Sequence record: PZ242158.1
Direction: 5' to 3' (one strand)
Length of the DNA stretch: 64,000 nucleotides
Source of the DNA: a phage
Positions within the stretch are counted from its first letter, which is position 1. Every line of letters begins with the position of its first letter. Below the pieces are notes generated by a model. That model searched no databases and was not told the DNA's origin. It saw nothing but the letters and a program-made list of their open reading frames with translations. Below are positions 2,880 through 40,974 of this stretch, piece by piece. A program made the translations under genes and the position numbers.

Positions 2880-5303
2880 ATGAGCATGTGGTCGTTCGAT
2901 TTTGAGTCATCCGGTTTGCTGGAAGACCCAGATCTTTATTATCACTGCGGCCTGTTTAAAGAGCTGAATAAGAACCGTTTTATGCTGTTCCTTCCTCTGA
3001 ATGACCGCACACACTACTCCGAGGAGGATATAGAGAAGGCCAAGAACTTTATTCTGGCAAAGAAAACTCTTTATAAGGATTTTGAAGTTCGCATAGCAGA
3101 TTTTTCGGAGTTGGAAGGTTGGCTTACAGGAAATTCCGACTGGTCACCAACAGCTTTGAACTGCCATAACTGCTACAGTTATGACTTTATGCTGATGGAG
3201 AGATTATCCGGTATTCATTTTGATATGTTCCGTGATCCTAAATGCATGGGGACTATCAACGACCACCAGGTTAACCTGTTTGATACGTTGGCTATGAGCC
3301 GAATCTTGTGGCCTGATCGCCCTTTACCAAAAGGTTGTCCGGACGCTGTATTCAACCCGGTTACTAAGAAAATGCAACCTGTTGGTCCTCACGGCCTTAT
3401 GGCATGGGGCTACGCCCTTGGTAACCAGAAAGTTCAAATTGATGACTGGCGCGATCTTCCGCTGTGGAAATATGTGGATCGTGTGTTCGAGGACGTTATC
3501 ATCCAGGAGTTGCTCTGGAAAGAGTTGGTAGCGGAATCAAAAGGTGTATTCTACGGCAAATCTGACATGCAGAACTTTATGTATGACCCTGCCAAAGAGA
3601 AGCCTAAAGGATTCAAGAAGATTACCTGGAAGAATGCATTACGCCGAGGCATGCTGCAGCATTTCCTGATGGAGCTGCAGGCTCGACAGGGTGTGTATTT
3701 CGACATAGATGGGGCTATTGCTTTACGTGACCGCTGCGATGCGTGGATGAAAGAGATCGCTGATCGTGTTGAACCACAACTTCCTTTAAAAGAGTTATCA
3801 ATGTCTCAGCGGCCTAAGTTCCCTGAAAAGCCGTTTAACCAGGATGGGACAATCTCCAATAATGGTTGGAAATGGTTAAAAGACAAGCTTGGCTACCCTG
3901 TGGACATGAGTGCTTTAGAATTCAAAGCTCCTCCTAAGCGAGCATTTACCTCCACAGGAGATGTCAGTAAGATGGGGATAAAATGGTGTGAAGAGATGGG
4001 CTGTAAAGACCCTGACAAGATGGCGGATTTCTTGAGGGGCTATATCAAGGGCACCTCCACACCACAACCTTTACCTAAAGAGCTAATGGATCAGGCAATA
4101 AGTGATCTACAGCAGAAGCGAATGCCTGACTGCAAGATACCTATGAAAATCAGTAATCAGGACGATATTAAGCGATACCTGATCAGTGCTGGTTGGCTTC
4201 CGACAATGTGGAGAACTAAGGATGTAACTAAAGACAGCAAGAAGAAAGCTCTACCTGATGCAGATGTTGATGCACGAGTGTATGCATATATGGACGAGCT
4301 TTTAGAGTCAGAGTATTGTGACCTAATTATCAACTTCTGGAACAAAACTGATGCTAAGTTCCAGACAACCGTGCACAAGTTCCGAAGCTTTCCTAACTCC
4401 GAAAGGATTAAAAAGGAAGTATTCGGGAAAATACGTAGAAAAGCTAGGGCACTTATTACTTCTCCGCAACTGAAAGATACGTTTGGACACCTATGCCCGA
4501 ATCTTGAAAAATTGAACGGAGAGATGGCTAAAGATATCGTCTTGTGGTTATCATTGCGAAACCGCAGATCGGTCCTTGATCCAATCAAGGAGGATAAGGT
4601 TGATACTGGTCTTCTTAATCACCCACGTTTGAAGATTGACCATAAGCTTCCTGCTAAAAGTTCTGGATTAACAAACACTTCCCGACAGAAACACAGTATT
4701 TGTGCAAACATGCCTAAACCATCTCCTAAAGTGGTTATGGGTAAAGAGATGCGTAGTCTGTGGGGTGTTCCTCCAGGATACTTTGAGATCGGTATTGACG
4801 GGTCCAACTTAGAGCAGCTTATCGGGGCTTGGGGTGCCTTTGAGTTCGACAACGGCCTGTATTACGATGTTGTAAGTAACGGGGACGCACACCAAAACAA
4901 TGCTGAGGCATATACAAAAGTAGCAGGTAGAGAGGTGTCTCGTAACGACGGTAAACCTATCACGTATGGGGTTATGTATGGGGCACAAAAAGATAAAGTT
5001 GCAGATATGCTGGACATCTCTCCAGAGTTGGGACAAAGGGTAATCGATGCACTCTGGGATGCCAACCCTGGTCTTAAGGGGCGTAAAGAAGATCTGGAGA
5101 AATTCTGGGAAGCAACGGGTAAGAAGTTTATCTACTCTTTTGATGGTCATGCTATCTGGACCCGATCTAAACACTCTTTACTTAATGCATACCAACAAAA
5201 TGGCGGCGCATCGTTGTGTGACTTAGTTGGGATACTCATGCACCATCAAATGGTGAAGCGTGGGTGGTACGATGAAGGTGTTCGTCGTATTATCTATTAC
5301 CAT
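2880..5303 (+). CDS. DNA polymerase, family A, exon 1
   Basis: AAGGAG RBS; exo motifs FDFESSG and HNCYSYD; motif B KPITYGVMYG; ORF stops one codon after the His where motif C (HDE) is expected. Confidence 0.8.
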
Positions 5304-27045: not shown

Positions 27046-27284
27046 TGCTTTTATATTATGTCATATATTATTAACTTGTTAATTGTTAGTCAGTCAAATC
27101 AACAGCGTTATCATTTCAGTCTTTATTGTTGTTGATCGTTATTGTTATCATGCAAACGAATGGCATGGCTTATCATCTCTGTATAAACAGTTTATGCGTG
27201 AACAGTGAGGCATGCAATAGTAACAATTGTTATTGTGTCATCATGTCAAGGGTAAAGTGTCATAGTATGTCAGACATGTTTTTC

Positions 27285-28277
27285 CCCTCTTTGTCAAGTG
27301 CTGCATGAAAAAATTTACAAGCTGGTATGGTAGCATTTTTGCGGCCTTGTTTACATTCAGGAGTGTATGTATAATCCTTGTTGTGTGGGCGTTTATACGT
27401 CTGGACGGTCAGAAGTCTGCAGGTTAATATCTAATCTATTGGCTGCTAACTATATCCCACACAAATGATAAGAAATATAATTGTTATATGCGTAAACTGT
27501 AACTCATGTTATCAATCCCTGTATGTATCGCCAGTGGTGCGCATAATGGGTATTATGTTAAATTGCCCGTAATGATAACAGTTCTCACAATGATAGGTAT
27601 TCTCATTCATCCACACAAAATAGGTTGCAAATGTTGTGCCACTGTGTGAACGGCCTGGCCTATTAATTTCTCTCACTGCCTCGATATTTGAGAATTGTTA
27701 TAAGAATGAGAAGTATCCATGTTTATATTACATCTACTTGGTTCAGAACCAAAATGCGCGAAAGCGTTTCACGATAACTAGCGACCACGGTCTGTTCCCT
27801 GGCGGCCATACGGCTTCTACTGAACGCAGCAGAGGGCGATAATCCCCTCTTTGTCAAGTGCTGCATGAAAAAATTTACAAGCTGGTATGGTAGCATTTTT
27901 GCGGCCTTGTTTACATTCAGGAGTGTATGTATAATCCTTGTTGTGTGGGCGTTTATACGTCTGGACGGTCAGAAGTCTGCAGGTTAATATCTAATCTATT
28001 GGCTGCTAACTATATCCCACACAAATGATAAGAAATATAATTGTTATATGCGTAAACTGTAACTCATGTTATCAATCCCTGTATGTATCGCCAGTGGTGC
28101 GCATAATGGGTATTATGTTAAATTGCCCGTAATGATAACAGTTCTCACAATGATAGGTATTCTCATTCATCCACACAAAATAGGTTGCAAATGTTGTGCC
28201 ACTGTGTGAACGGCCTGGCCTATTAATTTCTCTCACTGCCTCGATATTTGAGAATTGTTATAAGAATGAGAAGTATT
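27285..28277. repeat. tandem direct repeat: two near-identical ~430-bp copies (about 27285-27717 and 27845-28277) separated by ~128 bp
   Basis: Long stretches read identically at a ~560-bp offset; each copy contains promoter-like TTGTTT-17-TATAAT. Confidence 0.7.
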
Positions 28278-29304: not shown

Positions 29305-29520
29305 TCAGTCCAGTGGTTCATCACCTACTTCACTGAAATCAATGTTCATGGTCTCCTCCCAACCATCAATCTCAGCACCAGAGTAGAGATCTTTAGGACT
29401 TACTCCCAAAGCATCAGCAACAGAGTCCATATTTAACACCTCTGGCAGGTATGATTCATCGAATTCAAGGTAAATCAGGCCACGAGTGTTGTCAGCTCCA
29501 CCAAATATTTCTATCTTCAT
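29305..29520 (-). CDS. small acidic protein
   Basis: First gene of the minus-strand array; Asp/Glu-rich; no domain. Confidence 0.5.
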   Translation of the reverse strand: MKIEIFGGADNTRGLIYLEFDESYLPEVLNMDSVADALGVSPKDLYSGAEIDGWEETMNIDFSEVGDEPLD

Positions 29521-29641
29521 GAAATCTCCTCTGGAAATGAGAGTGTGAACAGGGTTTTATACGTTCCGATGCACAGGAATTATGCACGTTTGCCTCTTCA
29601 GGCCATGCTTTAGCATGAGGAACCTGTGTGGGCTCGGTGCT

Positions 29642-29854
29642 TCATAGTCTACCACCCCTGAACTCTTCGTGCTCAGGCATAATAGAGAACCAGATATCTA
29701 CGATGTCTTCCCACGTTAGGTCATCAGCCTCAGGATCTACCTGGAGCGAAGATGGAGAATCTTCAGAATCTAAGTTTTCCTCTTTCACTGGCTCAGCCAA
29801 GGGACATATAGTCACTCCTTTGGATGTCTCTTCAGATGCATGTGTGTTTATCAT
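29642..29854 (-). CDS. small acidic protein
   Basis: Start overlaps upstream stop (ATGA). Confidence 0.5.
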   Translation of the reverse strand: MINTHASEETSKGVTICPLAEPVKEENLDSEDSPSSLQVDPEADDLTWEDIVDIWFSIMPEHEEFRGGRL

Positions 29855-29940
29855 GTTCCACCCGTGAGTATTCCGGCAACAGCCGCTATGGACGTAATGA
29901 TCATCAGGATCACCACTAAAACTTCGGACAATGTTCTCAT
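29851..29940 (-). CDS. small hydrophobic peptide (29 aa)
   Basis: GGAG RBS; MRTLSEVLVVILMIITSIAAVAGILTGGT; stop overlaps next start. Confidence 0.4.
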   Translation of the reverse strand: MRTLSEVLVVILMIITSIAAVAGILTGGT

Positions 29941-30161
29941 TGTGTACTCCATATTCTACAAACTATGTGTGGATACTATCACTGGATCGGTAATGTGTCA
30001 ACAGAAACGCCGCGAGGGTTTGGTTAAAATCCGAGCGTATGGTGATTTGGGTCAAAACGGACGTGCGTTCTCGCTACGCTCGAAATATGGAGTTGTTTGT
30101 AGGGAGCTCTTAAACGCTCTGTAATGAGATTAACTGCCCAAGGTATGCAATCGTGCACCAG

Positions 30162-30189
30162 ATAAAGAAAAGGACGCCACAGAGCGTCC
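30162..30189 (-). terminator. rho-independent terminator
   Basis: GGACGC-TCTGTG-GCGTCC hairpin followed by TTTTCTTT on the minus strand. Confidence 0.6.
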
Positions 30190-30214
30190 TAGGTGTCTTA
30201 AATTTGATATTTTG

Positions 30215-30526
30215 CTATACCCACGAGGGCTTATCAAGGTTGGAGTAGCTGAAAGGTGTCAAAAGGTGACTGTCAAAATCTCTCAAACTATCCAAATCTT
30301 TTTCCTCGTCCTGACACCATCTGTGCCTACATTTGTTGTTGTAGTGCATGGAATGCATAGCGTTCTGCAACTTAACAGGCACAAGTGATTCAGGAGTAGA
30401 TAGTATTGTTGGGTATGCCAGAACCACCTCAAACAGTGGAAACACATCGAAACTAAAGTCTACCTCTGCAGAGGTTGATGGCATGTAGGAGTATTTAGCC
30501 GCCTTTGTAGACATAATCCACCTCAC
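30215..30526 (-). CDS. hypothetical protein
   Basis: ORF in minus array; no domain. Confidence 0.5.
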   Translation of the reverse strand: MRWIMSTKAAKYSYMPSTSAEVDFSFDVFPLFEVVLAYPTILSTPESLVPVKLQNAMHSMHYNNKCRHRWCQDEEKDLDSLRDFDSHLLTPFSYSNLDKPSWV

Positions 30527-30855
30527 ACAGGTTTGATAATACCTTCACCGAATAGCTCTTCGTATCTAATCTTGTCCGGATCCCACTCCTGGAGAATTTC
30601 GAAGACAATATCCAACCCAGGAACAATCACTTCTCCAGTGTCAAGCTTAGCAAGAACAAAACCGGAAGGTTGAATGGTTTCCCAGTTACGGCGATCAGAA
30701 TAAAATACTTCGAAAATATCACCAACCTCAATCCGTTTCTGTTGCTCAAGATGCTCAAGGTTCTCTTTCATACGGATGCAGCGTATTTTTCGTGCAGGCC
30801 ATAGACCACCTGCATCACGTTCATTCAATTCTTTTACAGTGATCGGTATACCCAT
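30523..30855 (-). CDS. hypothetical protein
   Basis: AAGGAG RBS; coupled to downstream gene. Confidence 0.5.
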   Translation of the reverse strand: MGIPITVKELNERDAGGLWPARKIRCIRMKENLEHLEQQKRIEVGDIFEVFYSDRRNWETIQPSGFVLAKLDTGEVIVPGLDIVFEILQEWDPDKIRYEELFGEGIIKPV

Positions 30856-30877
30856 CTCAAATCTCCTTCATAGATAG

Positions 30878-30900
30878 TAAAAGAGGGGCCCAAGCCCCTC
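30878..30900 (-). terminator. rho-independent terminator
   Basis: GAGGGGC-TTGG-GCCCCTC hairpin followed by TTTT on the minus strand. Confidence 0.6.
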
Positions 30901-30909
30901 TCTTTGTCA

Positions 30910-31215
30910 TTATTCTACAGAGCGTTTGAACAGAATGTCTGCCTCGGACATGTGCTCAACCTCTTCTTCGATTTTAGCTCGACGTTTTTCAGCCTCATAG
31001 CGAATATCGAACTCGGTAGCCACCAGAGATTTGATGAATTTAGGAGAATACAGGTGATCCTGCTTCTCAACGAGAATGATATCCTTAATGGCATCTTTCA
31101 GATCTTTAATCTGAAGTTGGAGTTCCACCAGTTCTTCGATTGTCTTGCGAAGGCGATCACGCTCTGCAGTGTCAGAAGGAAGAGAGGTGAACAGTTCAAC
31201 TTTAGATTTAGCCAT
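30910..31215 (-). CDS. coiled-coil protein
   Basis: Charged heptad-like sequence; no domain. Confidence 0.5.
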   Translation of the reverse strand: MAKSKVELFTSLPSDTAERDRLRKTIEELVELQLQIKDLKDAIKDIILVEKQDHLYSPKFIKSLVATEFDIRYEAEKRRAKIEEEVEHMSEADILFKRSVE

Positions 31216-31243
31216 AGTAAGAGTCTCCTTATGTTGTTTTAAA

Positions 31244-31495
31244 TTAACGTTCTACAAAAATATCGTTCAGTTCAATAACCAGGAATTTCTGGTCTTCACT
31301 GTCGTCTCGTGCCAGCACCTCACAGACGTATCGGTCATCTCCATCATCATCGCAGTCAAATACAAGACTGAGGACTTTATCATGGTAAACCTTCGCCACT
31401 ACCGCCTCGTAAGTATTGCCGATTGTGAATCCAAGATAATCTCCGATGCATTTGACAACAACATGGTCTCCAGCATTTAAGTCAATCTTCGTCAT
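31244..31495 (-). CDS. small acidic protein
   Basis: Internal Met after AAGGAG RBS (track ORF extends to 31561). Confidence 0.5.
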   Translation of the reverse strand: MTKIDLNAGDHVVVKCIGDYLGFTIGNTYEAVVAKVYHDKVLSLVFDCDDDGDDRYVCEVLARDDSEDQKFLVIELNDIFVER

Positions 31496-31650
31496 TACTG
31501 CGCTCCTTGGGTAATAATACTGTATGTAAAACTTTAACCAGAGATGTGAATAACGCCCCAAAACACACCGATAGCGCTAAAACAGACAAGGCCATCATTA
31601 AAGCTTCAGTAAAATCAGTCACCCCTCACCTCTTGTTAGTCACTATACTG

Positions 31651-31914
31651 TCATTTATCCTTGCCGTCAAGAACTTTTTTAAATCTTTCAGGGATATCGC
31701 CTGTTCTTAGATAGCTCATGACCTCACAAGGTTCCCACTTAAATTTCTTACAAAGCAGGGCGGCTGAGATTGTTTCATTGCGAAAAGAAAGGATATTAAT
31801 ATCCCATTCTGAGAACCCCAACTTCCGAAGGGTAGCTACAGAAATCCTCACCGCAACCCAGCAGCAAAAACATGCAACAAACGCCACTGCTATAACCCAC
31901 ATCAGGATGTTCAT
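31651..31914 (-). CDS. membrane protein
   Basis: N-terminal hydrophobic helix MNILMWVIAVAFVACFCCWVAV. Confidence 0.5.
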   Translation of the reverse strand: MNILMWVIAVAFVACFCCWVAVRISVATLRKLGFSEWDINILSFRNETISAALLCKKFKWEPCEVMSYLRTGDIPERFKKVLDGKDK

Positions 31915-31923
31915 ACAAGCACC

Positions 31924-32007
31924 TCACTGAAATACAAGACACAGTGTTAAGGTTACTGACCAGCAAATAATTAACAGTGCCGTTGCAACCTTGGCAAGAT
32001 TTATCAT
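31924..32007 (-). CDS. small hydrophobic peptide (27 aa)
   Basis: ATG overlaps upstream stop; MINLAKVATALLIICWSVTLTLCLVFQ. Confidence 0.35.
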   Translation of the reverse strand: MINLAKVATALLIICWSVTLTLCLVFQ

Positions 32008-32291
32008 AGTGCCTCTAAGATTTCATATCCTTCGGGTCGGAATACAAGCCACTCCGTGGCTCCGTTTGGTCGATACGCTTTATACAGAACAACCTGATCT
32101 CGGCACATGCACATAGCTACATAGTTTTCATCCACACCTGCAGCCTGCATTGCAGCTTCTTCTCCGGCAACTGCTTTGCTTACAACCTCCTTGGTAGGCA
32201 GGTGTGCGATCAGCTCGTCACCATCATTAATTCCAAAATGGCTGAGTTCTCCATTGGTATCTTTAATCTTAATCTTAACCAGATCTTTCAT
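32004..32291 (-). CDS. small acidic protein
   Basis: Coupled ORF; no domain. Confidence 0.5.
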   Translation of the reverse strand: MKDLVKIKIKDTNGELSHFGINDGDELIAHLPTKEVVSKAVAGEEAAMQAAGVDENYVAMCMCRDQVVLYKAYRPNGATEWLVFRPEGYEILEAL

Positions 32292-32620
32292 TAGTCTTCC
32301 TCCAGGTTCAAAGGCCCTAAGATTTCATATGCCAGATTAGAAGTTACCAGAGGGTCTTCTGCATCTTTAGTATTGTACCACCCGTGAATAACCAGAGTCC
32401 CACTTTGTTTCATGTCCAACTGGAGCTCTTCTGCCGTTTCCTCATCCAGCTCCAAGATTTCCATGAGGTATTTGATGTTAGGAAGGTATGCAGCTGTTAC
32501 AGTTCCCTCCACCAAACCTTCGGGCCAACCTACATCCGGATGACAAGTAGGAACCAAGTTGGTCAACTTAATGGTGTACGCTTTTTCTGCACGAGCCTTC
32601 AGTAACGGGTCAATCTTCAT
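32291..32620 (-). CDS. small acidic protein
   Basis: Coupled ORF; MKI N-terminus shared with neighbours. Confidence 0.5.
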   Translation of the reverse strand: MKIDPLLKARAEKAYTIKLTNLVPTCHPDVGWPEGLVEGTVTAAYLPNIKYLMEILELDEETAEELQLDMKQSGTLVIHGWYNTKDAEDPLVTSNLAYEILGPLNLEED

Positions 32621-32970
32621 TATTCGTCCTCCTCTTCGGTGCCTGCTTCCAGTAATAAGTTAAGAATATCTTCTGCACAAGGCTCATAGAACTCTTGGCC
32701 TTCATTATCGATGATTTTGTAGTCATCTCCACGAATAATTAGTGGATCACTCTCAAAATTATCGAGACCTTTAACAACGACAACACGATCGATTGCCATC
32801 ATTGTAAGAACTTTATCGACATCTTCCTCTGCTACACCATACTGCAGCAGAATGTCTTTAGTAGGAGGAACAGCATCCACCACAACACCGTTACCAAAAC
32901 CTTCCGGAAGTTTAGCTAAAATATCTTCCGGAACCACATTAACATCAAAACCAGTAATTTCTACTTTCAT
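32620..32970 (-). CDS. small acidic protein
   Basis: Coupled ORF; C-terminal EEEDE tail. Confidence 0.5.
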   Translation of the reverse strand: MKVEITGFDVNVVPEDILAKLPEGFGNGVVVDAVPPTKDILLQYGVAEEDVDKVLTMMAIDRVVVVKGLDNFESDPLIIRGDDYKIIDNEGQEFYEPCAEDILNLLLEAGTEEEDE

Positions 32971-33231
32971 TTACAGCACCTCTTCGTCAACTACTTCATA
33001 AAAATGGCCTGGGATTGCAATAGCGTTCTCACCTTCACCTACAAACACAGTTCCGTCAAGAATCAACATCATAAGAATTTCTGTAATATCCTCTTCCGGA
33101 ACGTTGCCAAAACCTTTAATCAGCTCGTAGGTTGGAATATTTACCTCTAAGATGTCACCATCTTTAGAACGGAAATCAACACCGTCCTGAATCTCTGCCG
33201 TTTCAAGGTTTTTCAATTTAATCTTCATCAA
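32971..33231 (-). CDS. small acidic protein
   Basis: Coupled ORF; MKIKL N-terminus. Confidence 0.5.
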   Translation of the reverse strand: MMKIKLKNLETAEIQDGVDFRSKDGDILEVNIPTYELIKGFGNVPEEDITEILMMLILDGTVFVGEGENAIAIPGHFYEVVDEEVL

Positions 33232-33307
33232 TCGGTCTCCTGTCTTGTTAAGATGAAGGTATTATTTCACACAGGGTTGGCGTTGTCAACACCTGTGTGC
33301 AAGAAAA

Positions 33308-33703
33308 TTACTGAAACAGTGCGGATAAATTACCTTCTGGTGGGAACTTATCTGCCAAAAACGGTGTTAGCACAGTAGCCTTCTGAAGATCTGGGGTCCA
33401 CTCGTTGTTCAGAACATCCCAGTAGTACGCAATGTTGCTGTGTGGGTGCCGCATTACGAACTTTTTCCCTTCGTAGTCATCTGAAACCTCTACAGAAGAA
33501 ATAACAACAGAATCTTCAAGGGTTTCTTCATAGAAAGATCCGCCTTCAAATTTCCAACGAGATGCAAGAGCCCCTGCCTTGAACGCTGCAGATAACGGAC
33601 TGTCGGCAAGAACATACATTTCTTGCACTCTGTCGCTGCGATCTTTGCTTCTTACGTTGTATACAGTATCTGAGCTATACTCAACACGGTATAGGCTTAC
33701 CAT
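33308..33703 (-). CDS. hypothetical protein, paralog family 2 (with 35510..35908)
   Basis: Shares F-V-HP-S...YW...WTP block with 35510..35908. Confidence 0.5.
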   Translation of the reverse strand: MVSLYRVEYSSDTVYNVRSKDRSDRVQEMYVLADSPLSAAFKAGALASRWKFEGGSFYEETLEDSVVISSVEVSDDYEGKKFVMRHPHSNIAYYWDVLNNEWTPDLQKATVLTPFLADKFPPEGNLSALFQ

Positions 33704-34035
33704 TACCGCACCTCCTCAATAACTTCCACATCTGAACCTACCACAAATGCAAAAGGACAGGTTTCATGAAAGACATCCGGATCGCCGCCAAGCTTGCTAA
33801 CAATCTCTCCACCACTAATAAACACAAGCTCACCGATATTCATCAGATTGCTGAAATAGTACCCATAATGATTAAAGAATGCAGCAGGGTCAGGTAGACT
33901 AGTAGCCTCAAGCACTACATCAGTTGAGGTTACTTTCTTATCATAACCTCTCGCCTTTTGAGATGCAAGATCTGCAGAATCCTCAGGCGACCGGAGATGC
34001 ACAGGAATTGTTTCACCAATAAAGCGTACTTTCAT
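33703..34035 (-). CDS. small acidic protein
   Basis: Internal Met MKVRFIG chosen (track ORF extends to 34062). Confidence 0.45.
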   Translation of the reverse strand: MKVRFIGETIPVHLRSPEDSADLASQKARGYDKKVTSTDVVLEATSLPDPAAFFNHYGYYFSNLMNIGELVFISGGEIVSKLGGDPDVFHETCPFAFVVGSDVEVIEEVR

Positions 34036-34039
34036 ATTA

Positions 34040-34303
34040 TCACCCAACAACCATAGCTTCAAAAGGGGTCATGAACGAATAAACGGCATCATCATCTGCT
34101 TCAGGGAATGCTCCCAAAGACTTCATGTCTGAGCCCTTGACAAATACAAGGTTTTGATCAAAAGCTTCTTGAGGATCAATCCGATACATATTTCGTAGAA
34201 TATCGCCTACCTCCTCATCAAGAGGTGAGTATGCTGTGCACGTTTTTCCGATCAAGCTTTGAGAATCAGGGTATCCACCTGAAGTTTTAAAATAAACAAT
34301 CAT
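34040..34303 (-). CDS. small acidic protein
   Basis: Contains VKGSDMKSLGAFPE, related to family 1 motif. Confidence 0.5.
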   Translation of the reverse strand: MIVYFKTSGGYPDSQSLIGKTCTAYSPLDEEVGDILRNMYRIDPQEAFDQNLVFVKGSDMKSLGAFPEADDDAVYSFMTPFEAMVVG

Positions 34304-34394
34304 ATAGTATCACCTCTGGTAAGAGATTGGGATTCCTTTCCCACAAATAATTACAAACCTTCCTTATCGAGGAAGTATGCTAATCCAAGCAGGA

Positions 34395-34664
34395 TTATTC
34401 CTCTACAATCTCATACACATCCGGAGTTACAATCAACTCTTCTCCGTTACCCGGTGCAACAAACACCACCATGCCTTCAGGTGTGTGCTTTTTAGCCATC
34501 TCGATAACATCTTCTCGCAGAGCTGGCTCCATCAGATCAAAACCTTCACCCAGGGCATCACGAACCACCTTCATATAGTCAACTGGTTGTGCTTCGACAA
34601 TCATACCTTCAACCAGTCCACAGTTTTTGTCTGCCAGCTCAGTTTTGAATAATTTAATTTTCAT
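34395..34664 (-). CDS. small acidic protein
   Basis: MKIKLF N-terminus; ends EIVEE. Confidence 0.5.
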   Translation of the reverse strand: MKIKLFKTELADKNCGLVEGMIVEAQPVDYMKVVRDALGEGFDLMEPALREDVIEMAKKHTPEGMVVFVAPGNGEELIVTPDVYEIVEE

Positions 34665-34690
34665 TTAGAGGTCTCCTCAATTATTTGATA

Positions 34691-34792
34691 TTAATAGCCG
34701 TAACCTAACACATTAACTACAACTGCGATTGCAAACATAATTTCAAAGCATGCAATCTCTACATTTGGGACTAATTTCTTGATCACACCCAT
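34691..34792 (-). CDS. small hydrophobic peptide (33 aa)
   Basis: GAGGTG RBS just downstream of HPF stop; MGVIKKLVPNVEIACFEIMFAIAVVVNVLGYGY. Confidence 0.35.
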   Translation of the reverse strand: MGVIKKLVPNVEIACFEIMFAIAVVVNVLGYGY

Positions 34793-34801
34793 TGTAGCAC
34801 C

Positions 34802-35119
34802 TCATTCTCTAAAGTCAATCTTTACTTTGCCTTTCCCCTTACCTTTCTTTCCACCGCATTTAGCCAGTTGACGTGCTGCAACATCTACCATACGGTCAGT
34901 TGCCTCGTAAGCATCACTGCCTTTAGCTTTGGCAATAACTTCTTTTCCAGAATTGTCAAAAATGAACGCCATAACTTCCTGGTGATCATTTTCAACTTTT
35001 ACACTCACACGTGCATAGTTGGCAGAGGGATGCAAACGCTCCAGCTTAGACATTTTGTGGGAAATGAAAGACACCATACCTTCAGTGATTTCTACGTTGC
35101 CAGTGATTTCAATTTGCAT
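34802..35119 (-). CDS. hpf: ribosome hibernation promoting factor homolog (HPF/RaiA family)
   Basis: MQIEITGNVEITE...KLERL...VSVKVE...GKEVIAKAKGSDAYEATDRMVDVAARQLAK aligns along its length with E. coli HPF/RaiA; Lys/Gly-rich C-terminal extension. Confidence 0.8.
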   Translation of the reverse strand: MQIEITGNVEITEGMVSFISHKMSKLERLHPSANYARVSVKVENDHQEVMAFIFDNSGKEVIAKAKGSDAYEATDRMVDVAARQLAKCGGKKGKGKGKVKIDFRE

Positions 35120-35130
35120 AACGTGTTCCT

Positions 35131-35157
35131 TTTAAAGAAGAGGGAACCAAACCCTCT
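35131..35157 (-). terminator. putative terminator or intergenic hairpin
   Basis: AGAGGG-TTTGGTT-CCCTCT hairpin upstream of the HPF RBS. Confidence 0.4.
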
Positions 35158-35201
35158 TTGAAAACAATGATACTAAATCTGAAGCGTTGTGTCAACAGTT
35201 T

Positions 35202-35492
35202 TTACAGATTGTTGTCGATAGTTTTTAAAATATCCACAGCAAGATCTGCCATTTTTCGAACATACTCTGCAAACTCAACAGGATCCTTGATCAAAGAATT
35301 CACAGGGTCGTACCCTAGAGCGTTCAAAATGGCTGCAGCATCTACAACCTTCTCATCATTTGCGAAGATCTCTCCGTCAAACTTGTAGGTCCATTTTGAG
35401 TCAACCTTAGCAGAGCAGGGTTTGTCCATGCTTGTTACACCATCGTCTTTAAACTCTCCTGCGTTATCAATATTTAGAATTAAATCCATCAT
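35202..35492 (-). CDS. small acidic protein
   Basis: Coupled ORF; no domain. Confidence 0.5.
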   Translation of the reverse strand: MMDLILNIDNAGEFKDDGVTSMDKPCSAKVDSKWTYKFDGEIFANDEKVVDAAAILNALGYDPVNSLIKDPVEFAEYVRKMADLAVDILKTIDNNL

Positions 35493-35509
35493 GGTGACAC
35501 CTCACTGTT

Positions 35510-35908
35510 TCAGTTTAGCTTTTCTTCAACAACCCCATAACTTGGGGCAGAGTCAAGAGCTTTCTGGTTTAAAAGTGGCGTAGCAGAATCTGCAAACGGT
35601 GTCCAAGTTTTTGTTCTGGCATTCCAGTAATGCTTCACTCTGGAATCTGGATGCACTATAACAAAAACTTTTTCACTTGTCAACACATTAATTTCTTCTA
35701 CACCCTTGCTGATAATTTCTCCGTCATAGCCCCCAGTCTGGTATCCTTCGTACCAGGTTCTTGCATAGGCATAGCCAGCCTGCCAGCATGCAGCCTCCTC
35801 CGAGGTGGAGACTACGTAGAAGTCTTTCTCAAATTCTGGAATACGCCCTTGCTTTACGCTCCAAGCCCCGCGAATTTTCATTGTAACTTTAAACAGTTTA
35901 TTTTTCAC
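35510..35908 (-). CDS. hypothetical protein, paralog family 2 (with 33308..33703)
   Basis: Shares FVIVHPDSRVKHYWNARTKTWTP block with 33308..33703. Confidence 0.5.
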   Translation of the reverse strand: MKNKLFKVTMKIRGAWSVKQGRIPEFEKDFYVVSTSEEAACWQAGYAYARTWYEGYQTGGYDGEIISKGVEEINVLTSEKVFVIVHPDSRVKHYWNARTKTWTPFADSATPLLNQKALDSAPSYGVVEEKLN

Positions 35909-35920
35909 AACGGTTACCCA

Positions 35921-36175
35921 TCACAGCTCTACAATATCTGCATCTGACCCTACCCCAAAGGCATAGTAGGACTCTTCCCCGAAATAATATTCAGGTGCAC
36001 CAGCGGTGATCAGGTCTGATCCCAAGATAAACACCACGTTGTGGCCTACATAACTGTGATGTTGCCGCACAGGATCATCCCACGGCAACCCTTCAAAGTA
36101 TACCGCAGGAACGACCTTTCCATTCAGGAAGGATTGTCCCAAGTAGACGTTAGAATCAAGAATTTTAACCTTCAT
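35921..36175 (-). CDS. small acidic protein, paralog family 1
   Basis: MKVKILDSNVYLGQ...GSDLITAGAPE matches family motif MKVKxLD...KGxDLxAAGA. Confidence 0.5.
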   Translation of the reverse strand: MKVKILDSNVYLGQSFLNGKVVPAVYFEGLPWDDPVRQHHSYVGHNVVFILGSDLITAGAPEYYFGEESYYAFGVGSDADIVEL

Positions 36176-36392
36176 GATCGTCCTCCACTACCTCTACATC
36201 CTCACCTAGGGCAAAGTTATAGGTCCACTGACTGTCAAAGCATTCCTGAGATGCACCAGCGGCAATAAGATCTGCTCCTTTTATTTTTAAAAGGTCAGGG
36301 TAATCTTCGTTAGGGACAGCAGTAAACACTTTTCCTACTAAAGGCTCCTGACCAATATAGAAGCTTGAATCTAAAACTTTAACTTTCATCAA
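36165..36392 (-). CDS. small acidic protein, paralog family 1
   Basis: MMKVKVLDSSFYIGQ...KGADLIAAGASQE. Confidence 0.5.
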   Translation of the reverse strand: MMKVKVLDSSFYIGQEPLVGKVFTAVPNEDYPDLLKIKGADLIAAGASQECFDSQWTYNFALGEDVEVVEDDHEG

Positions 36393-36676
36393 CGGTCTCC
36401 ATCAGGTGGTTGTGGGACGTAAACACTGTTACGAATATCGTCAGCAGTGTAGTAATAAGTGGTTCCAACCCTGTCTCGGGCTGCAATGTACTCTGCTATA
36501 CCAATAAGTGCCATTGATTTGGTGGCGTATCTTCCCAACTCGTTAGCTCCCCAGTAGAATTTAGACCAGTAGGGAATAAGACCGAACAAATATACCTTTT
36601 GACGAACTTCCCAGTAAGTGCCTTTTCCGACAAGTTTAAACTCTACTTCACTACTGTTAATCTTTTTCATTATCAA
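36389..36676 (-). CDS. hypothetical protein
   Basis: Coupled ORF. Confidence 0.5.
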   Translation of the reverse strand: MIMKKINSSEVEFKLVGKGTYWEVRQKVYLFGLIPYWSKFYWGANELGRYATKSMALIGIAEYIAARDRVGTTYYYTADDIRNSVYVPQPPDGDR

Positions 36677-36969
36677 TCTCCCTCTACCGTGGTCGGATTG
36701 TCAGTAAGAAATTGAGCATTGGCTGGAGGCACGCCTGACATTTTCCACACAACCATAAGTTTGTAACCAGGCACTCTATTAAGTGCAGATCGAGTAGAGT
36801 TTGTGCACGTATACTTTCGCTTTCCAAACCCGTTCTCCATCATAATCCAGTACCCAGTATCTTTGTCACCAGGTATCGGTAGACCACCTTCATCAACCCA
36901 CTGAATGGACCACGGCACGATGGCTACAGCTTTATATTTAAACTTTTTAAACCACTCAAAAAGTTTCAT
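36673..36969 (-). CDS. hypothetical protein
   Basis: Coupled ORF. Confidence 0.5.
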   Translation of the reverse strand: MKLFEWFKKFKYKAVAIVPWSIQWVDEGGLPIPGDKDTGYWIMMENGFGKRKYTCTNSTRSALNRVPGYKLMVVWKMSGVPPANAQFLTDNPTTVEGD

Positions 36970-37154
36970 AATTCAGCCTCGCTTGGCAACTCTTCTACCT
37001 TAACATGCCGAAAAGTGTTACCGTAATGGTTGATCCATGACATCAGCTCGCTTTCTTGCTCTTCCTCTGGGATGAACTCTCGAATGCTGACAAGTTTTAA
37101 GAAAACCCAATCACAATCTGCACCCATTCTACCAGACAGGCAATAGTGCTTCAT
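36966..37154 (-). CDS. hypothetical protein
   Basis: Coupled ORF. Confidence 0.45.
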   Translation of the reverse strand: MKHYCLSGRMGADCDWVFLKLVSIREFIPEEEQESELMSWINHYGNTFRHVKVEELPSEAEL

Positions 37155-37172
37155 AAAACCCTCCTGCCTGGT

Positions 37173-37367
37173 TTAGAATATTGCTTCTTCCATTGCGCCT
37201 GAGAGCAACAAAGAGGTGATCTGGCTAACATTCATCTCAGACTCTACTTCCTCCCCTTTGAAAGGTTCGCGGCAGAATAGGACTGTTTCAGGACTTTTAC
37301 TTCGAACAATATAATACAAATCATTCAATGTGTTGTAGTAATAAGTGTTAAAACGTAAGTTTTTCAT
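37173..37367 (-). CDS. hypothetical protein
   Basis: Short ORF in array. Confidence 0.45.
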   Translation of the reverse strand: MKNLRFNTYYYNTLNDLYYIVRSKSPETVLFCREPFKGEEVESEMNVSQITSLLLSGAMEEAIF

Positions 37368-37651
37368 TTTCTAGTCCCCTTCTTAGATTTTTGTGTAGAA
37401 ACGCTTTCTGCAATACGAGACAGACGTTCTTCTGAAGCCTTACCTACTCCAGGTTTTTTGAGTGGATTATCTTTATGACCACAATCCAACTGGATATTGG
37501 ATACCTCTCCAACTTTGTAAGTCAATTCTAGCAAAAGGTTGTCGTCCTTGTCAAATGTTTTTACGATAAATTTTTTATCGTTCTCCTGAACTTCATATCT
37601 GGTACCTGCAGTATACAGCATGGTGCCATCAGCATAGGATATCCAGATCAT
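37364..37651 (-). CDS. hypothetical protein
   Basis: Coupled ORF. Confidence 0.5.
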   Translation of the reverse strand: MIWISYADGTMLYTAGTRYEVQENDKKFIVKTFDKDDNLLLELTYKVGEVSNIQLDCGHKDNPLKKPGVGKASEERLSRIAESVSTQKSKKGTRK

Positions 37652-37995
37652 TGAGCCTCCTTTTGCTGCAACAGCATTAACTCTTTGTTAGAGATCTTTA
37701 CTGCTGTTTTTATTGTTCCATCTTCACGAAACCACGACCAGAACTCTACAGTGTCACCACTATCAAGTAAAGCATGCCCATGGTAAAAATCTTTGTCCTT
37801 AGACAGTTTCTCATCTATATCTGCATCAACACATTCGTGATCCATAGCATTTTGCCTGAACGCATCGGTTATGCCAATGCACGCCTTGCTCTCAAGACTG
37901 GTATATCCGATATCTTTTAATTCAGTTTCCCAAGTCCAGTACCCTATAAAAGCTAAAACAGCTACCCACAGTAATAACGTTTTAATCTTTGGCAT
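37648..37995 (-). CDS. secreted or membrane-anchored protein
   Basis: Signal-anchor-like MPKIKTLLLWVAVLAFIGYWTW. Confidence 0.5.
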   Translation of the reverse strand: MPKIKTLLLWVAVLAFIGYWTWETELKDIGYTSLESKACIGITDAFRQNAMDHECVDADIDEKLSKDKDFYHGHALLDSGDTVEFWSWFREDGTIKTAVKISNKELMLLQQKEAQ

Positions 37996-38057
37996 TCTCT
38001 CTACCTCTTTCTTAGTTTATTTCACTATGGCACATCCTTTGTGCCATATCTCAACTA

Positions 38058-38528
38058 CTACTTAAATAGTAGTTCAAAATAGTGCAAAATTAACAGAAGT
38101 TGAACTACACCTAGTGCAACGGCGAGTATGTTAATCTTAGAATCGAAAAACTTCTTAACTTTTACTCTAAAAGGTTCCTTAATGTCCTTTACGATCCTAT
38201 CTATAGATGACCTCATATCTCTGATTACCATCCTGAACATTAAAGACGGATGCTCCCCCATCTCTGTAACGGAATCGAAAACATACTCTCTTCGGTCATA
38301 AGGGCCGCCAGCTCTGCGTATTAACCTCTCCACAGAGACCTCGAACGTCACACCTGTAACGTAATCATCTATAACAAGTCGTGACGGGTCTTTACCTTTA
38401 CTATCAAGAGGTATCAAAGTTATCTTTCCAGATTTTGTTAAAATTTCCCCTTTTTCAAGCAAGGTGTACCAATGCTCTCTGCCAAGACTGTTGAGGCACG
38501 TTTTTACATATTTAACAAACATCGTCAC
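38058..38528 (-). CDS. membrane-anchored protein
   Basis: C-terminal hydrophobic helix LAVALGVVQLLLILHYF. Confidence 0.5.
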   Translation of the reverse strand: MTMFVKYVKTCLNSLGREHWYTLLEKGEILTKSGKITLIPLDSKGKDPSRLVIDDYVTGVTFEVSVERLIRRAGGPYDRREYVFDSVTEMGEHPSLMFRMVIRDMRSSIDRIVKDIKEPFRVKVKKFFDSKINILAVALGVVQLLLILHYFELLFK

Positions 38529-38728
38529 CCCTCACCGCACGTCTGATATAACCACTCTATAAAATCTTGATACCATTCGCCCTCTGAGCGCTCCGTAGGC
38601 CAATAATCTTCACCCTCTCGTGCATTAAAATCTGAGTATTCAACTTTCCACTCCTTTACCAGCTCGTGGAGAAGGTTTTCAGCCTGCTCTAAAGATTTAT
38701 TTTTTACCATTGCTGTCTCCTTTTTCAA
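38525..38728 (-). CDS. hypothetical protein
   Basis: TTG start in track; internal ATG with AAGGAG RBS also possible. Confidence 0.45.
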   Translation of the reverse strand: MKKETAMVKNKSLEQAENLLHELVKEWKVEYSDFNAREGEDYWPTERSEGEWYQDFIEWLYQTCGEG

Positions 38729-38929
38729 GATAGTTATACATCAGAACTGCACCACCTAAGATGGCTACCAGTAACAATATCCCAGATAGCATCTCAATAA
38801 ACATGGCTTGAAACACTGGAAGGTCTCCCTAAATTAACGCACCATTTTAAATACATGCTCTTTTCCCATAAAGGTGCCTGGCTAAGATCTGCGTAGAACG
38901 CAATCTCTTTAAGAACAGTATAGATAGTT

Positions 38930-39157
38930 TTAGGTGCGGTCTCCATCCCTACTCTCCTTCCTGATATTCTTGTAGTAATCAACTAGGCACATTATTACGA
39001 TGAAGATAACAACAGGCCAAAAAGGTGCAGCAGTGATGATGGTGATAAAATCATCAAACTTCACCCTTCGTCTGGACACGATGCATACACCTGTCAAGAA
39101 TACCGCTGTTATAACGGACATTACCAGGTAACCTATTAGCACAACATTTATACTCAT
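38930..39157 (-). CDS. membrane protein
   Basis: Two hydrophobic helices. Confidence 0.45.
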   Translation of the reverse strand: MSINVVLIGYLVMSVITAVFLTGVCIVSRRRVKFDDFITIITAAPFWPVVIFIVIMCLVDYYKNIRKESRDGDRT

Positions 39158-39187
39158 TGGTCCTCCCTTTGTAGGTTAAATTGTATA

Positions 39188-39721
39188 CTACAAATGGTCG
39201 CTGAGGGTGTCAAGAAAATTATCCCGTTCTTTCTCAGAGTTTTCATGTGTGTAGCTGAAAAACATATCGAGAATAACCTTATTGATATATTCCAGCTCCT
39301 CTGTGTTCAGATGCTTAGCAGGATCTACAATGACATCCCAAATATCATACAGACCACACTCATGATACCCATAACGCCACTCAATTGTCAAGCTGAGCGG
39401 CAAATCTTTACCTTCACAAACAACCTTCCATCTACATATGTTGGTATCTGGTCGTACCTGTGCACGGTACACCTGCACAAAATCCAATTTGAATTTGAGG
39501 TACTCGTCATACAATTTAAGCACAAAGCTCTCGATTTGTGGAGACACTTTTGCAGCAAACTGTGCGTATTTGTACTTGCACTGAATGATCTTTCTGCGTT
39601 TTGCAGTTAAATTTTTTGCCGCCAGTTGTTCTTCAGTGTATCTCCACCTACGATCAACAAACGCAACAGGGTCTTTGTCCCCATAGAGGTCTTCCCAGTT
39701 AATCAGAAGCATACCTGTCAC
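39188..39721 (-). CDS. hypothetical protein
   Basis: 177-aa ORF; no domain. Confidence 0.55.
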   Translation of the reverse strand: MTGMLLINWEDLYGDKDPVAFVDRRWRYTEEQLAAKNLTAKRRKIIQCKYKYAQFAAKVSPQIESFVLKLYDEYLKFKLDFVQVYRAQVRPDTNICRWKVVCEGKDLPLSLTIEWRYGYHECGLYDIWDVIVDPAKHLNTEELEYINKVILDMFFSYTHENSEKERDNFLDTLSDHL

Positions 39722-39951
39722 TCCTCCACAACTTCAAGGCCTTTACCGCCTCGCTCTGGCAGATTACTTAAAGATAGGTAATACATATAATCAGGAGAGA
39801 TCCTGCCAGACTCTGCACCTGCAGCTAGTAAATCCTTCCCTTTAACCAGGACAACATTCTCGTTTGCAGATAGCCGTTTTGCTTCCACAATTTTACCAAC
39901 ACAGTCAACCAAGGAAGGGTACCCTAAATCTGTAAGAAATTTAACTTTCAT
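39718..39951 (-). CDS. small acidic protein, paralog family 1
   Basis: MKVKFLTDLGYP...VKGKDLLAAGAESG. Confidence 0.5.
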   Translation of the reverse strand: MKVKFLTDLGYPSLVDCVGKIVEAKRLSANENVVLVKGKDLLAAGAESGRISPDYMYYLSLSNLPERGGKGLEVVEE

Positions 39952-39988
39952 GCTACCTCCTACCTACCGTCCCTGGTAAGATAAATTA

Positions 39989-40387
39989 TTACTGAACAGA
40001 GCGCGGTGCTGGGAAGGATAACTCTTCTAAAGAGAAGATTTCATTTCCTACCACCCAAGTTGCTGGGTCATCTGGATCAACAGGTTGGATAATCATTACC
40101 TCATCCGCCTCGCACACACGTTTCCCACCCATAGTAGCGTCAGCCACTAACATACGCGGCTCTTCAGAAATGCACAGGTAGCCACCTCGGCCCACTGTTC
40201 CTTCCACGGGATCCTGCCCTTTGACCACAATGAATACCTTCTCTCCTGTGGAGATATTACTTTTCACACTAACAGTTTGACCAACTTTAGATGTACCGAT
40301 CTTGGTGGCTTCAAACATTAAATCCCGAATTACTGTTGCATAGTTGCCGGACACTTTCTTACCTTCTTTAGTAATCTCAATCTTCAT
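39989..40387 (-). CDS. hypothetical protein
   Basis: MKIEITKEG N-terminus; no domain. Confidence 0.5.
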   Translation of the reverse strand: MKIEITKEGKKVSGNYATVIRDLMFEATKIGTSKVGQTVSVKSNISTGEKVFIVVKGQDPVEGTVGRGGYLCISEEPRMLVADATMGGKRVCEADEVMIIQPVDPDDPATWVVGNEIFSLEELSFPAPRSVQ

Positions 40388-40659
40388 AATCTAGGCTCCT
40401 TAAATGAATCTATGTAATCAATTAAATCCCAAGCATCGCGATGGGCTGTCAGAGGGTATACTTCTCCGAGAGGGATCATAGCAATAAGTCTATCAAAAAC
40501 CCAGTCTGGACGCAACATTTTATGGTGATATTCCCACTCACCTTCCACAGATTTTTTCTGAGTGATCAGGATCTCTGTGTAGTGTTTCGCCTGTCTTGAG
40601 TAGATTGAAAATGACTTGTACATAAATGACCCCCTCTTGTTGAAAACAACAATACACAA
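40384..40659 (-). CDS. hypothetical protein
   Basis: Coupled ORF. Confidence 0.5.
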   Translation of the reverse strand: MCIVVFNKRGSFMYKSFSIYSRQAKHYTEILITQKKSVEGEWEYHHKMLRPDWVFDRLIAMIPLGEVYPLTAHRDAWDLIDYIDSFKEPRL

Positions 40660-40974
40660 CTACCAGGTTACTGTCAAGTAGGCAACCGTATTATTTTTCT
40701 CTGGGGAGATGCCAACAACATCTACCTGCAGACCTCCTGCCCTTAAATCTCCAACAATGTGCGGGAAGTAATCTGAGAGATGCGAGGGCAGATTTATCGA
40801 AAATCCGCACCCCAGAAAGCCTGCTAACGCTTTATTTTGTATCTCCCCTACAATCGCATCATAAATGGAGTTAAGCTCGTCAGGGAGCGTTACAGGGCGT
40901 TTTAGCGCTAGCTGGTGTAATTTGTCCTTAGCACTCATTTTCATTTCAGGTCTACCTCTGGGGGTGCCAACCAC
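40660..40974 (-). CDS. hypothetical protein
   Basis: ORF in array. Confidence 0.5.
   Translation of the reverse strand: MVGTPRGRPEMKMSAKDKLHQLALKRPVTLPDELNSIYDAIVGEIQNKALAGFLGCGFSINLPSHLSDYFPHIVGDLRAGGLQVDVVGISPEKNNTVAYLTVTW

Follow-up and report, generated by a model that had tools for sequence, protein, structure and literature searches.

We analyzed an 11.4-kb block of small genes in the phage sequence record PZ242158.1, within a window of 64,000 nucleotides (nt), which is the whole stretch of DNA studied here and to which all coordinates refer unless another record is named. The window derives from an rV5-like coliphage, a myophage of the genus Vequintavirus. The block (29305..40660, minus strand) contains 38 short co-oriented genes, is about 91% coding, and is divided into several transcription units. 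It was 98.8% identical to Escherichia phage A51.2, and a total of 123 phage records matched it, nearly all of them from Vequintavirus, with 116 of the 123 spanning at least 80% of the block. The region is already known as a run of hypothetical proteins in more than 100 records, including those of Murica and FV3, and corresponds to open reading frames (ORFs) 125-163 in the annotation of rV5; its paralogy is partly contained in PHROGs. We found that 12 of the genes, about a third of the block, belong to three paralog families.

Gene starts were picked by Shine-Dalgarno match and agree with the annotation of Murica, rV5, and FV3. The encoded proteins are 29-174 amino acids (aa) long, with a median of 89 (37 genes, excluding the 46-aa gene at 31482-31622, which is annotated in rV5, FV3, ECP26, and NHEP1). 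Fourteen junctions within the block overlap (five by ATGA, four by TAATG or TGATG, and five by longer stretches), and 22 of 39 junctions, two genes upstream of the block included, are at most 10 nt. A first-pass annotation made from the sequence alone had described about 35 tightly coupled minus-strand genes for small acidic proteins, and the dense array with its many overlaps was borne out. Such tight packing within each transcription unit suggests translational coupling.

The acidity of the proteins was borne out only in part. Out of the 38 proteins, 21 had an isoelectric point (pI) below 5, 10 fell between 5 and 8, and 7 lay above 8. Values below 5 accounted for 55% of the block compared with 29% of other small proteins in the window (Fisher p=0.017), so the acidic bias is real, but seven proteins are basic and another feature, a strongly hydrophobic transmembrane-like segment, occurs in seven. 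The latter are encoded on the minus strand at 29851-29940, 31482-31622, 31651-31914, 34691-34792, 38058-38522, 38697-38816, and 38930-39157, and four of them are just 29-46 aa long. These seven are predicted to form a set of small membrane proteins, separate from the acidic soluble ones.

We then estimated the ratio of nonsynonymous to synonymous substitution rates (dN/dS) for 39 genes (37 of the 38 block genes, g40660, and the methyltransferase gene) against the relatives Aya, rV5, ECP26, FV3, and NHEP1. Pooled dN/dS was 0.00-0.39 for every one of the 39 genes and 0.04-0.17 for members of the paralog families. Values well below 1 in all tested genes indicate that the ORFs are translated and under purifying selection, which rules out spurious ORFs; untranslated ORFs had been named beforehand as an outcome that would refute the first-pass reading. 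In the rV5 reference (DQ832317.1, positions 4219-4489), the ortholog of g32004 is broken and annotated as two overlapping ORFs, 153 and 154, reflecting either a frameshift or a sequencing error.

To define the families, we combined all-against-all BLASTP and phmmer in a 39-protein set with PHROGs and leave-one-out hidden Markov model (HMM) profiles. All members lie on the minus strand. Family 1 comprises g39718 (39718..39951, 77 aa), g36165 (36165..36389, 74 aa), and g35921 (35921..36175, 84 aa), the last two in tandem with an 11-nt overlap, together with g34040 (34040..34303, 87 aa), which is divergent and carries an insertion, and g33703 (33703..34035, 110 aa), which has an N-terminal extension and is homologous in its C-terminal half. 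The pair g35921/g36165 was linked at E=8e-15, g39718 at 8e-8, and the C-terminal half of g33703 to g35921 at 4e-5. The first three members matched phrog_5009 at E-values of 1e-32 to 1e-38. For g34040, E-values against the family were about 4e-4 to 3e-3 (phmmer 4e-4 to both g39718 and g36165), 1.2e-4 against phrog_5009, and 1.5e-20 against the family HMM, a model that includes g34040 itself. Family 1 as proposed in the first-pass annotation, with g34040 as a related member, is thus real, and g33703 had been missed.

Family 2 consists of g35510 (35510..35908, 132 aa) and g33308 (33308..33703, 131 aa, dN/dS 0.04). This pair, also proposed in the first-pass annotation, aligned at E=6e-11 with 28% identity over 112 aa, and both members matched phrog_7379 at E-values of 1e-66 to 1e-74. 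Genes that had been noted for sharing MKIK or MKVE N-termini proved to be a third family of five: an array of g32971, g32620, g32291, and g32004 (32004..33228), whose genes abut or overlap by 1 nt, and the separate g34395 (34395..34664, 89 aa; leave-one-out HMM 3.6e-5). In the leave-one-out analysis all five ranked first, with E-values of 1e-3 to 2.5e-6. The gene g29305 was excluded from Family 3 by the same analysis, ranking seventh with E=2. No further copies of the three families were found elsewhere in the window.

PHROGs already implies part of this paralogy through phrog_5009 for Family 1 and phrog_7379 for Family 2, neither with a known function. Unlike the grouping presented here, it places g33703 and the five Family 3 genes in separate single-lineage families, and it gives g34040 its own phrog_13920, the match of this gene to phrog_5009 being weak. 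The wider family links and the common fold described below go beyond PHROGs and are shown here only.

Structure prediction had been set beforehand as a test of whether the putative paralogs have unrelated folds. Unrelated folds were not seen: the models of Families 1 and 3 are both SH3-like. The model of g36165, the member chosen for Family 1, is a five-stranded SH3-like barrel, and the AlphaFold2 (AF2) model of g32971 from Family 3 (predicted local distance difference test score, pLDDT, 80) is an SH3-like barrel with a helical insert. With five strands and superposition on SH3, KOW, or PsaE domains, the models correspond to SH3-like small beta-barrels, from which Family 3 differs by its two-helix insert between strands 2 and 3. 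Identity between Family 1 and the SH3, KOW, and PsaE folds was just 4-25% in the match list, with no sequence-level relation, and no sequence relation to SH3 families was found for the block families. Fold matches include Spt5 KOW domains, ribosomal eL6, and an L21e-like phage protein, a resemblance at the level of the fold alone. Foldseek against viral models retrieved uncharacterised small phage proteins only, and a search of PDB sequences returned no relatives for any of the three families.

Using hhalign profiles built from alignments enriched with divergent orthologs, we found that Families 1 and 3 were reciprocal best matches among 22 profiles (P=0.001-0.002) and aligned in register at the N-terminus. 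With moderate confidence, the models and profiles place the two families, 10 of the 38 genes, in one SH3-like superfamily. The predicted fold itself says little about function.

We next considered how widely the families are distributed. We searched 50,697 phage records with tblastn, and matches to the three families came from Vequintavirus alone: 118 records in total, of which a single one fell below 90% identity. In a word-indexed search of 5.8 billion proteins, Families 1 and 2 returned only close relatives, and an exhaustive profile search of 1.84 billion representatives yielded just 24 Family 1 matches at E<=1e-3, mostly of 63-107 aa. Two Family 1 matches of 3,600-4,400 aa with haemagglutinin-like repeats rich in Gly, Ala, and Val were taken as compositional false positives. 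Relatives of Family 1 were present in unrelated viral contigs, again in multiple copies; one of these contigs (L004) carries five around a family-A DNA polymerase gene.

A divergent metagenomic contig (L012) has the same gene order as the window, with identities of 69% for ClpP, 74% for PhoH, and 28-88% for block proteins. It retains orthologs of all five Family 3 genes and of four Family 1 genes, including that of g39718 at 74% identity. Two genes are lost in this contig (L012 7923-8693): of g35921 a 44-aa remnant is left, and an unrelated 96-aa gene takes the place of g35510. Because L012 keeps the Family 1 and Family 3 orthologs, the duplications are old. The paralog families are lineage-restricted and arose from old local duplications predating the split from L012, and single copies of them can be lost. 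The contig also carries an extra 98-aa gene (L012 10802-11098) matching PF27050 (Phage_P22_Y8K6), downstream of the site equivalent to the rV5 promoter P150, between a Family 2 gene and the Family 3 array.

The order Family 1-Family 1-Family 2 in the direction of transcription occurs twice in the block, as g36165-g35921-g35510 and as g34040-g33703-g33308, with each Family 2 gene directly downstream of its Family 1 pair. Duplication of a whole cassette was not established: the closest Family 1 pair is the tandem g36165/g35921, not the positional counterparts. The repeated order and the paired loss in L012 hint at functional pairing or an old cassette duplication, and the products of adjacent Family 1 and Family 2 genes might function in pairs.

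Evidence on dispensability came from natural deletions. In EduardKellenberger (Bas59, MZ501061.1), a viable isolate of the BASEL collection, blastn breakpoints define a 3.72-kb deletion corresponding to 35596..39315 of the window. It removes 13 whole genes together with parts of g39188 and g35510; two Family 1 genes, g38058, and most of g35510 are lost. At the breakpoint the aligned segments overlap by 15 bp, and the resulting g39188-g35510 fusion ORF is annotated as 'putative glycosidase'. Phage V18 carries three smaller deletions in the block. Together, these deletions indicate that laboratory E. coli can be infected without a large part of the block. The description of the paralogs as diversified applies over deep time only; within the genus, the tested members are at least 90% identical in all but one of the 118 records.

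Gene strand in the window follows the GC skew: as far as about 28.5 kb the genes are on the plus strand, and between 64 kb and 29.3 kb they are on the minus strand. Minus-strand genes upstream of the block include those for a ligase, an exonuclease, EndoVII, a DNA polymerase subunit, Dam, ThyX, aerobic and anaerobic ribonucleotide reductases, PhoH, a ClpP-like protease, and a small DNA methyltransferase. Because these genes adjoin it upstream on the same strand, the block is the far end of the leftward replication and nucleotide-metabolism arm.

To examine how the block may be transcribed, we searched for sigma70-like sites with at least 10 of 12 consensus positions. Eleven such sites lie on the minus strand of the block; six fall in gaps between genes, and these gaps account for only about 10% of its length. 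The first is at the upstream edge of the block (40649..40677, TTGACA-17-TATTGT). Further sites precede g38930 (39185..39213, TTGACA-17-TAGTAT), the HPF homolog described below (35167..35195, TTGACA-17-TATCAT; annotated as P144 in rV5), and the Family 3 array (33261..33289, TTGACA-17-AATAAT; annotated as P150 in rV5); all three have similar sites at matching positions in L012. The remaining two lie ahead of the 46-aa membrane-type ORF at 31482-31622 (31642..31670, TTGACG-17-TATAGT) and within a 274-nt gap ahead of g29851 (29973..30001, TTGACA-17-TAGTAT). Across the window, sites of this quality follow gene direction: below 28.6 kb, 22 of 26 are plus-strand sites, and above that point 26 of 32 are minus-strand sites. 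The orientation of the sites and the predicted promoters fit transcription by the host RNA polymerase.

Two intrinsic terminators lie inside the block: a GC-rich hairpin (30880..30905) between g30910 and g30523, annotated as Rho-independent in rV5 and Murica, and a minus-strand terminator after g30215 (30171..30190), annotated in Murica. Because of the promoter-like sites at gaps and these two internal terminators, we rejected the single operon of the first-pass annotation. Another hairpin terminator is located just upstream of the methyltransferase gene, and a 9-bp stem is present in the gap at 37996-38057.

The block also contains, as the first-pass annotation had noted, a gene for a short HPF/RaiA-type ribosome hibernation factor homolog, g34802 (34802..35119, minus strand, 105 aa). 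It matched PF02482 at E=1.8e-12 with 48.3 bits against a cut-off of 23.7, and among PDB HPF chains it matched 2rql_A at E=5e-12 over residues 1-89, which places it in the HPF/RaiA family. With bacterial short HPF/RaiA proteins it shares this end-to-end alignment to E. coli-type chains; unlike them, it is phage-encoded, has its own promoter-like site, and carries a basic tail rich in Gly and Lys, KCGGKKGKGKGKVK, outside the match. From this similarity, the phage homolog probably acts on ribosomes. Literature searches on the function of phage HPF found nothing relevant.

In the leader of this gene (35120-35201), a hairpin (AGAGGG-N7-CCCTCT) comes after P144 and precedes TCTTT and the ribosome-binding site, an arrangement that suggests an attenuator or an RNA-stabilising 5' stem-loop. 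Several GenBank records give g34395 of Family 3 the name 'sigma 54 modulation factor', so that these records show two such genes. Pfam gives no match for g34395, which is unrelated to HPF, so its label was probably transferred in error from the adjacent gene.

Few other genes of the block could be assigned. All 37 ORFs scanned received a PHROG assignment, 34 of them to families of unknown function, and HPF alone among the block proteins passed the Pfam threshold. Ten block representatives had no match in NCBIfam, and neither Rfam matches nor tRNAs were found in the window. One gene, g30910 (30910..31215, minus strand, 101 aa), is a predicted member of a transcriptional regulator family (phrog_639 'transcriptional regulator', E=1e-21) with a sub-threshold match to a GapR-like DNA-binding protein (E=0.04). 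It is among the best-conserved genes of the block, with a dN/dS of 0.01 and 86% identity to its L012 counterpart, and it may regulate the block. Another gene, g38058, carries an annotation as a possible virion structural protein.

Two further observations concern the surroundings of the block and its database records. Just outside the block, in an AT-rich, ORF-poor region where the two gene arms converge, the window contains a perfect 434-bp direct repeat (27283-27716 and 27843-28276) with copies 126 bp apart; this could be a true duplication, a region with a regulatory or origin-like role, or an artefact of assembly. In addition, 18 GenBank records of the MG0656xx series, named 'Campylobacter phage' with C. 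jejuni as host, are about 98% identical to the block. Their host assignment looks doubtful, and contamination or mislabelling is the likely cause.

Taken together, we favor, with a probability of roughly 60%, the interpretation of the region as a partly dispensable accessory block that relies on the host RNA polymerase for its transcription and encodes small proteins binding to host (or phage) factors. Transcription would probably occur early in infection. The soluble, mostly acidic small proteins would then bind or inhibit host (or phage) proteins one-to-one and thereby adjust host physiology, with the paralogs having diverged toward different binding partners. The HPF homolog would act on ribosomes, and the seven proteins with hydrophobic segments would act at the membrane. 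The first-pass annotation had regarded small acidic paralogs as a hallmark of host takeover and anti-defence. The setting does fit non-essential accessory genes transcribed by the host polymerase, but the anti-defence part of that proposal gained no positive support.

Several points weigh against this interpretation. Sigma70-like consensus sites are common across the window and some lie inside genes, and our literature searches found no transcript-timing data for Vequintavirus, so that the word 'early' reflects the promoter consensus. Families 1 and 3 are linked by two AF2 models, each built from five sequences, and by one weak match between profiles. The genes need not all be host-directed, as the possible virion protein g38058 illustrates. 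Finally, conservation across the genus and low dN/dS would also fit housekeeping roles in the phage.

Among the alternatives, an anti-defence arsenal survives best, although we regard it as unlikely. Here the small acidic paralogs would inhibit bacterial immunity, some of them as DNA mimics that block restriction or DNA-binding defence proteins. Anti-defence genes are known to include duplicated families of binders. The block proteins are small and skewed toward acidity, a laboratory host without restriction tolerates the loss of part of the block, and genes have turned over relative to the distant relative L012. Charge density is mimic-like in g32620 (net charge -21 over 116 aa), g29305 (-15 over 71 aa), and g29642 (-14 over 70 aa), with pI values of about 4.05, but not in most members of Families 1 and 2 (pI 4.1-7.8).

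These few proteins share small size and strong acidity with the DNA mimics Ocr, ArdA, and Arn. Unlike those mimics, Family 1 is only mildly acidic (net charge -1 to -10), and no similarity in sequence or fold links the block to Ocr, ArdA, KlcA, or Arn; searches of Pfam, NCBIfam, and PDB returned no match to Ocr, ArdA, KlcA, or other known mimic or anti-defence families. Purifying selection on the paralogs and their near-invariance within the genus do not follow an arms-race pattern. Literature searches on anti-defence genes of Vequintavirus found nothing relevant. In the BASEL study, Vequintavirinae were reported to be 'exceptionally susceptible' to restriction-modification, seemingly without effective protection, and to be commonly targeted by abortive infection (PMC8594841); the reported susceptibility to restriction-modification speaks against working Ocr-like mimics. 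On these grounds, the claim that the block encodes DNA mimics was not upheld.

Another possibility, weaker than our preferred reading and in our view quite improbable, is a translation-takeover module in which the SH3/KOW-like barrels around HPF act on ribosomes or ribosome-associated factors. The position of the HPF gene, with its own promoter-like site, between the two Family 1-Family 1-Family 2 groups and just upstream of a Family 3 gene would suit such a module, as would the fold-level matches to Spt5 KOW, eL6, and the L21e-like phage protein. However, the acidic family members (pI 4.05-5.4) differ from RNA-binding ribosomal barrels, and in unrelated viral contigs the Family 1 relatives lie around a DNA polymerase gene in whose vicinity no HPF gene was seen. 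Also possible but weaker, and similarly improbable, is that the families serve replication or assembly of the phage as chaperone- or scaffold-like factors rather than acting on the host: strong purifying selection, near-universal presence in the genus, the adjoining replication and nucleotide-metabolism genes, the possible virion protein g38058, and the Family 1 relatives around the polymerase gene of L004 would agree with this, but an isolate without 13 whole block genes, including two Family 1 genes and g38058, is viable, and g35921 and g35510 are lost in L012.

Returning to the accessory-block interpretation, one extension of it is worth stating even though we consider it doubtful. A phage-wide superfamily of free-standing SH3-like barrels may unite Families 1 and 3 with the distant relatives from unrelated phages, duplicating in tandem to form sets of binders that differ in their targets. 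If true, this superfamily would represent a previously unrecognised modular 'adaptor' system by which phages engage host proteins.

The rV5-like phages are among the most often isolated coliphages and are candidates for phage therapy, and about 11 kb of their genome is without assigned function. The present analysis provides a cleaner map of this region, with 38 genes, several transcription units, three paralog families, and a deletion that marks a dispensable 3.7-kb core. It also serves as a warning that composition alone is no basis for labelling genes as DNA mimics or anti-defence factors.

The block is best compared with the early regions of T4 and T5's pre-early genes. It shares with them a dense arrangement of short, mostly unannotated genes, tight junctions, an acidic bias, co-directional sigma70-type consensus promoters, and individual genes that are dispensable in the laboratory. 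As in such early genes, the predicted sigma70 consensus promoters lie upstream of transcription units. Unlike T4, T5, and T7, the block has no gene homologous to the characterised early proteins of those phages, and unlike the early regions of T4 and T5, about a third of its genes come from three local paralog families. The block is thus an ordinary and expected feature of a large lytic phage, and a better-described example of a familiar type of region.

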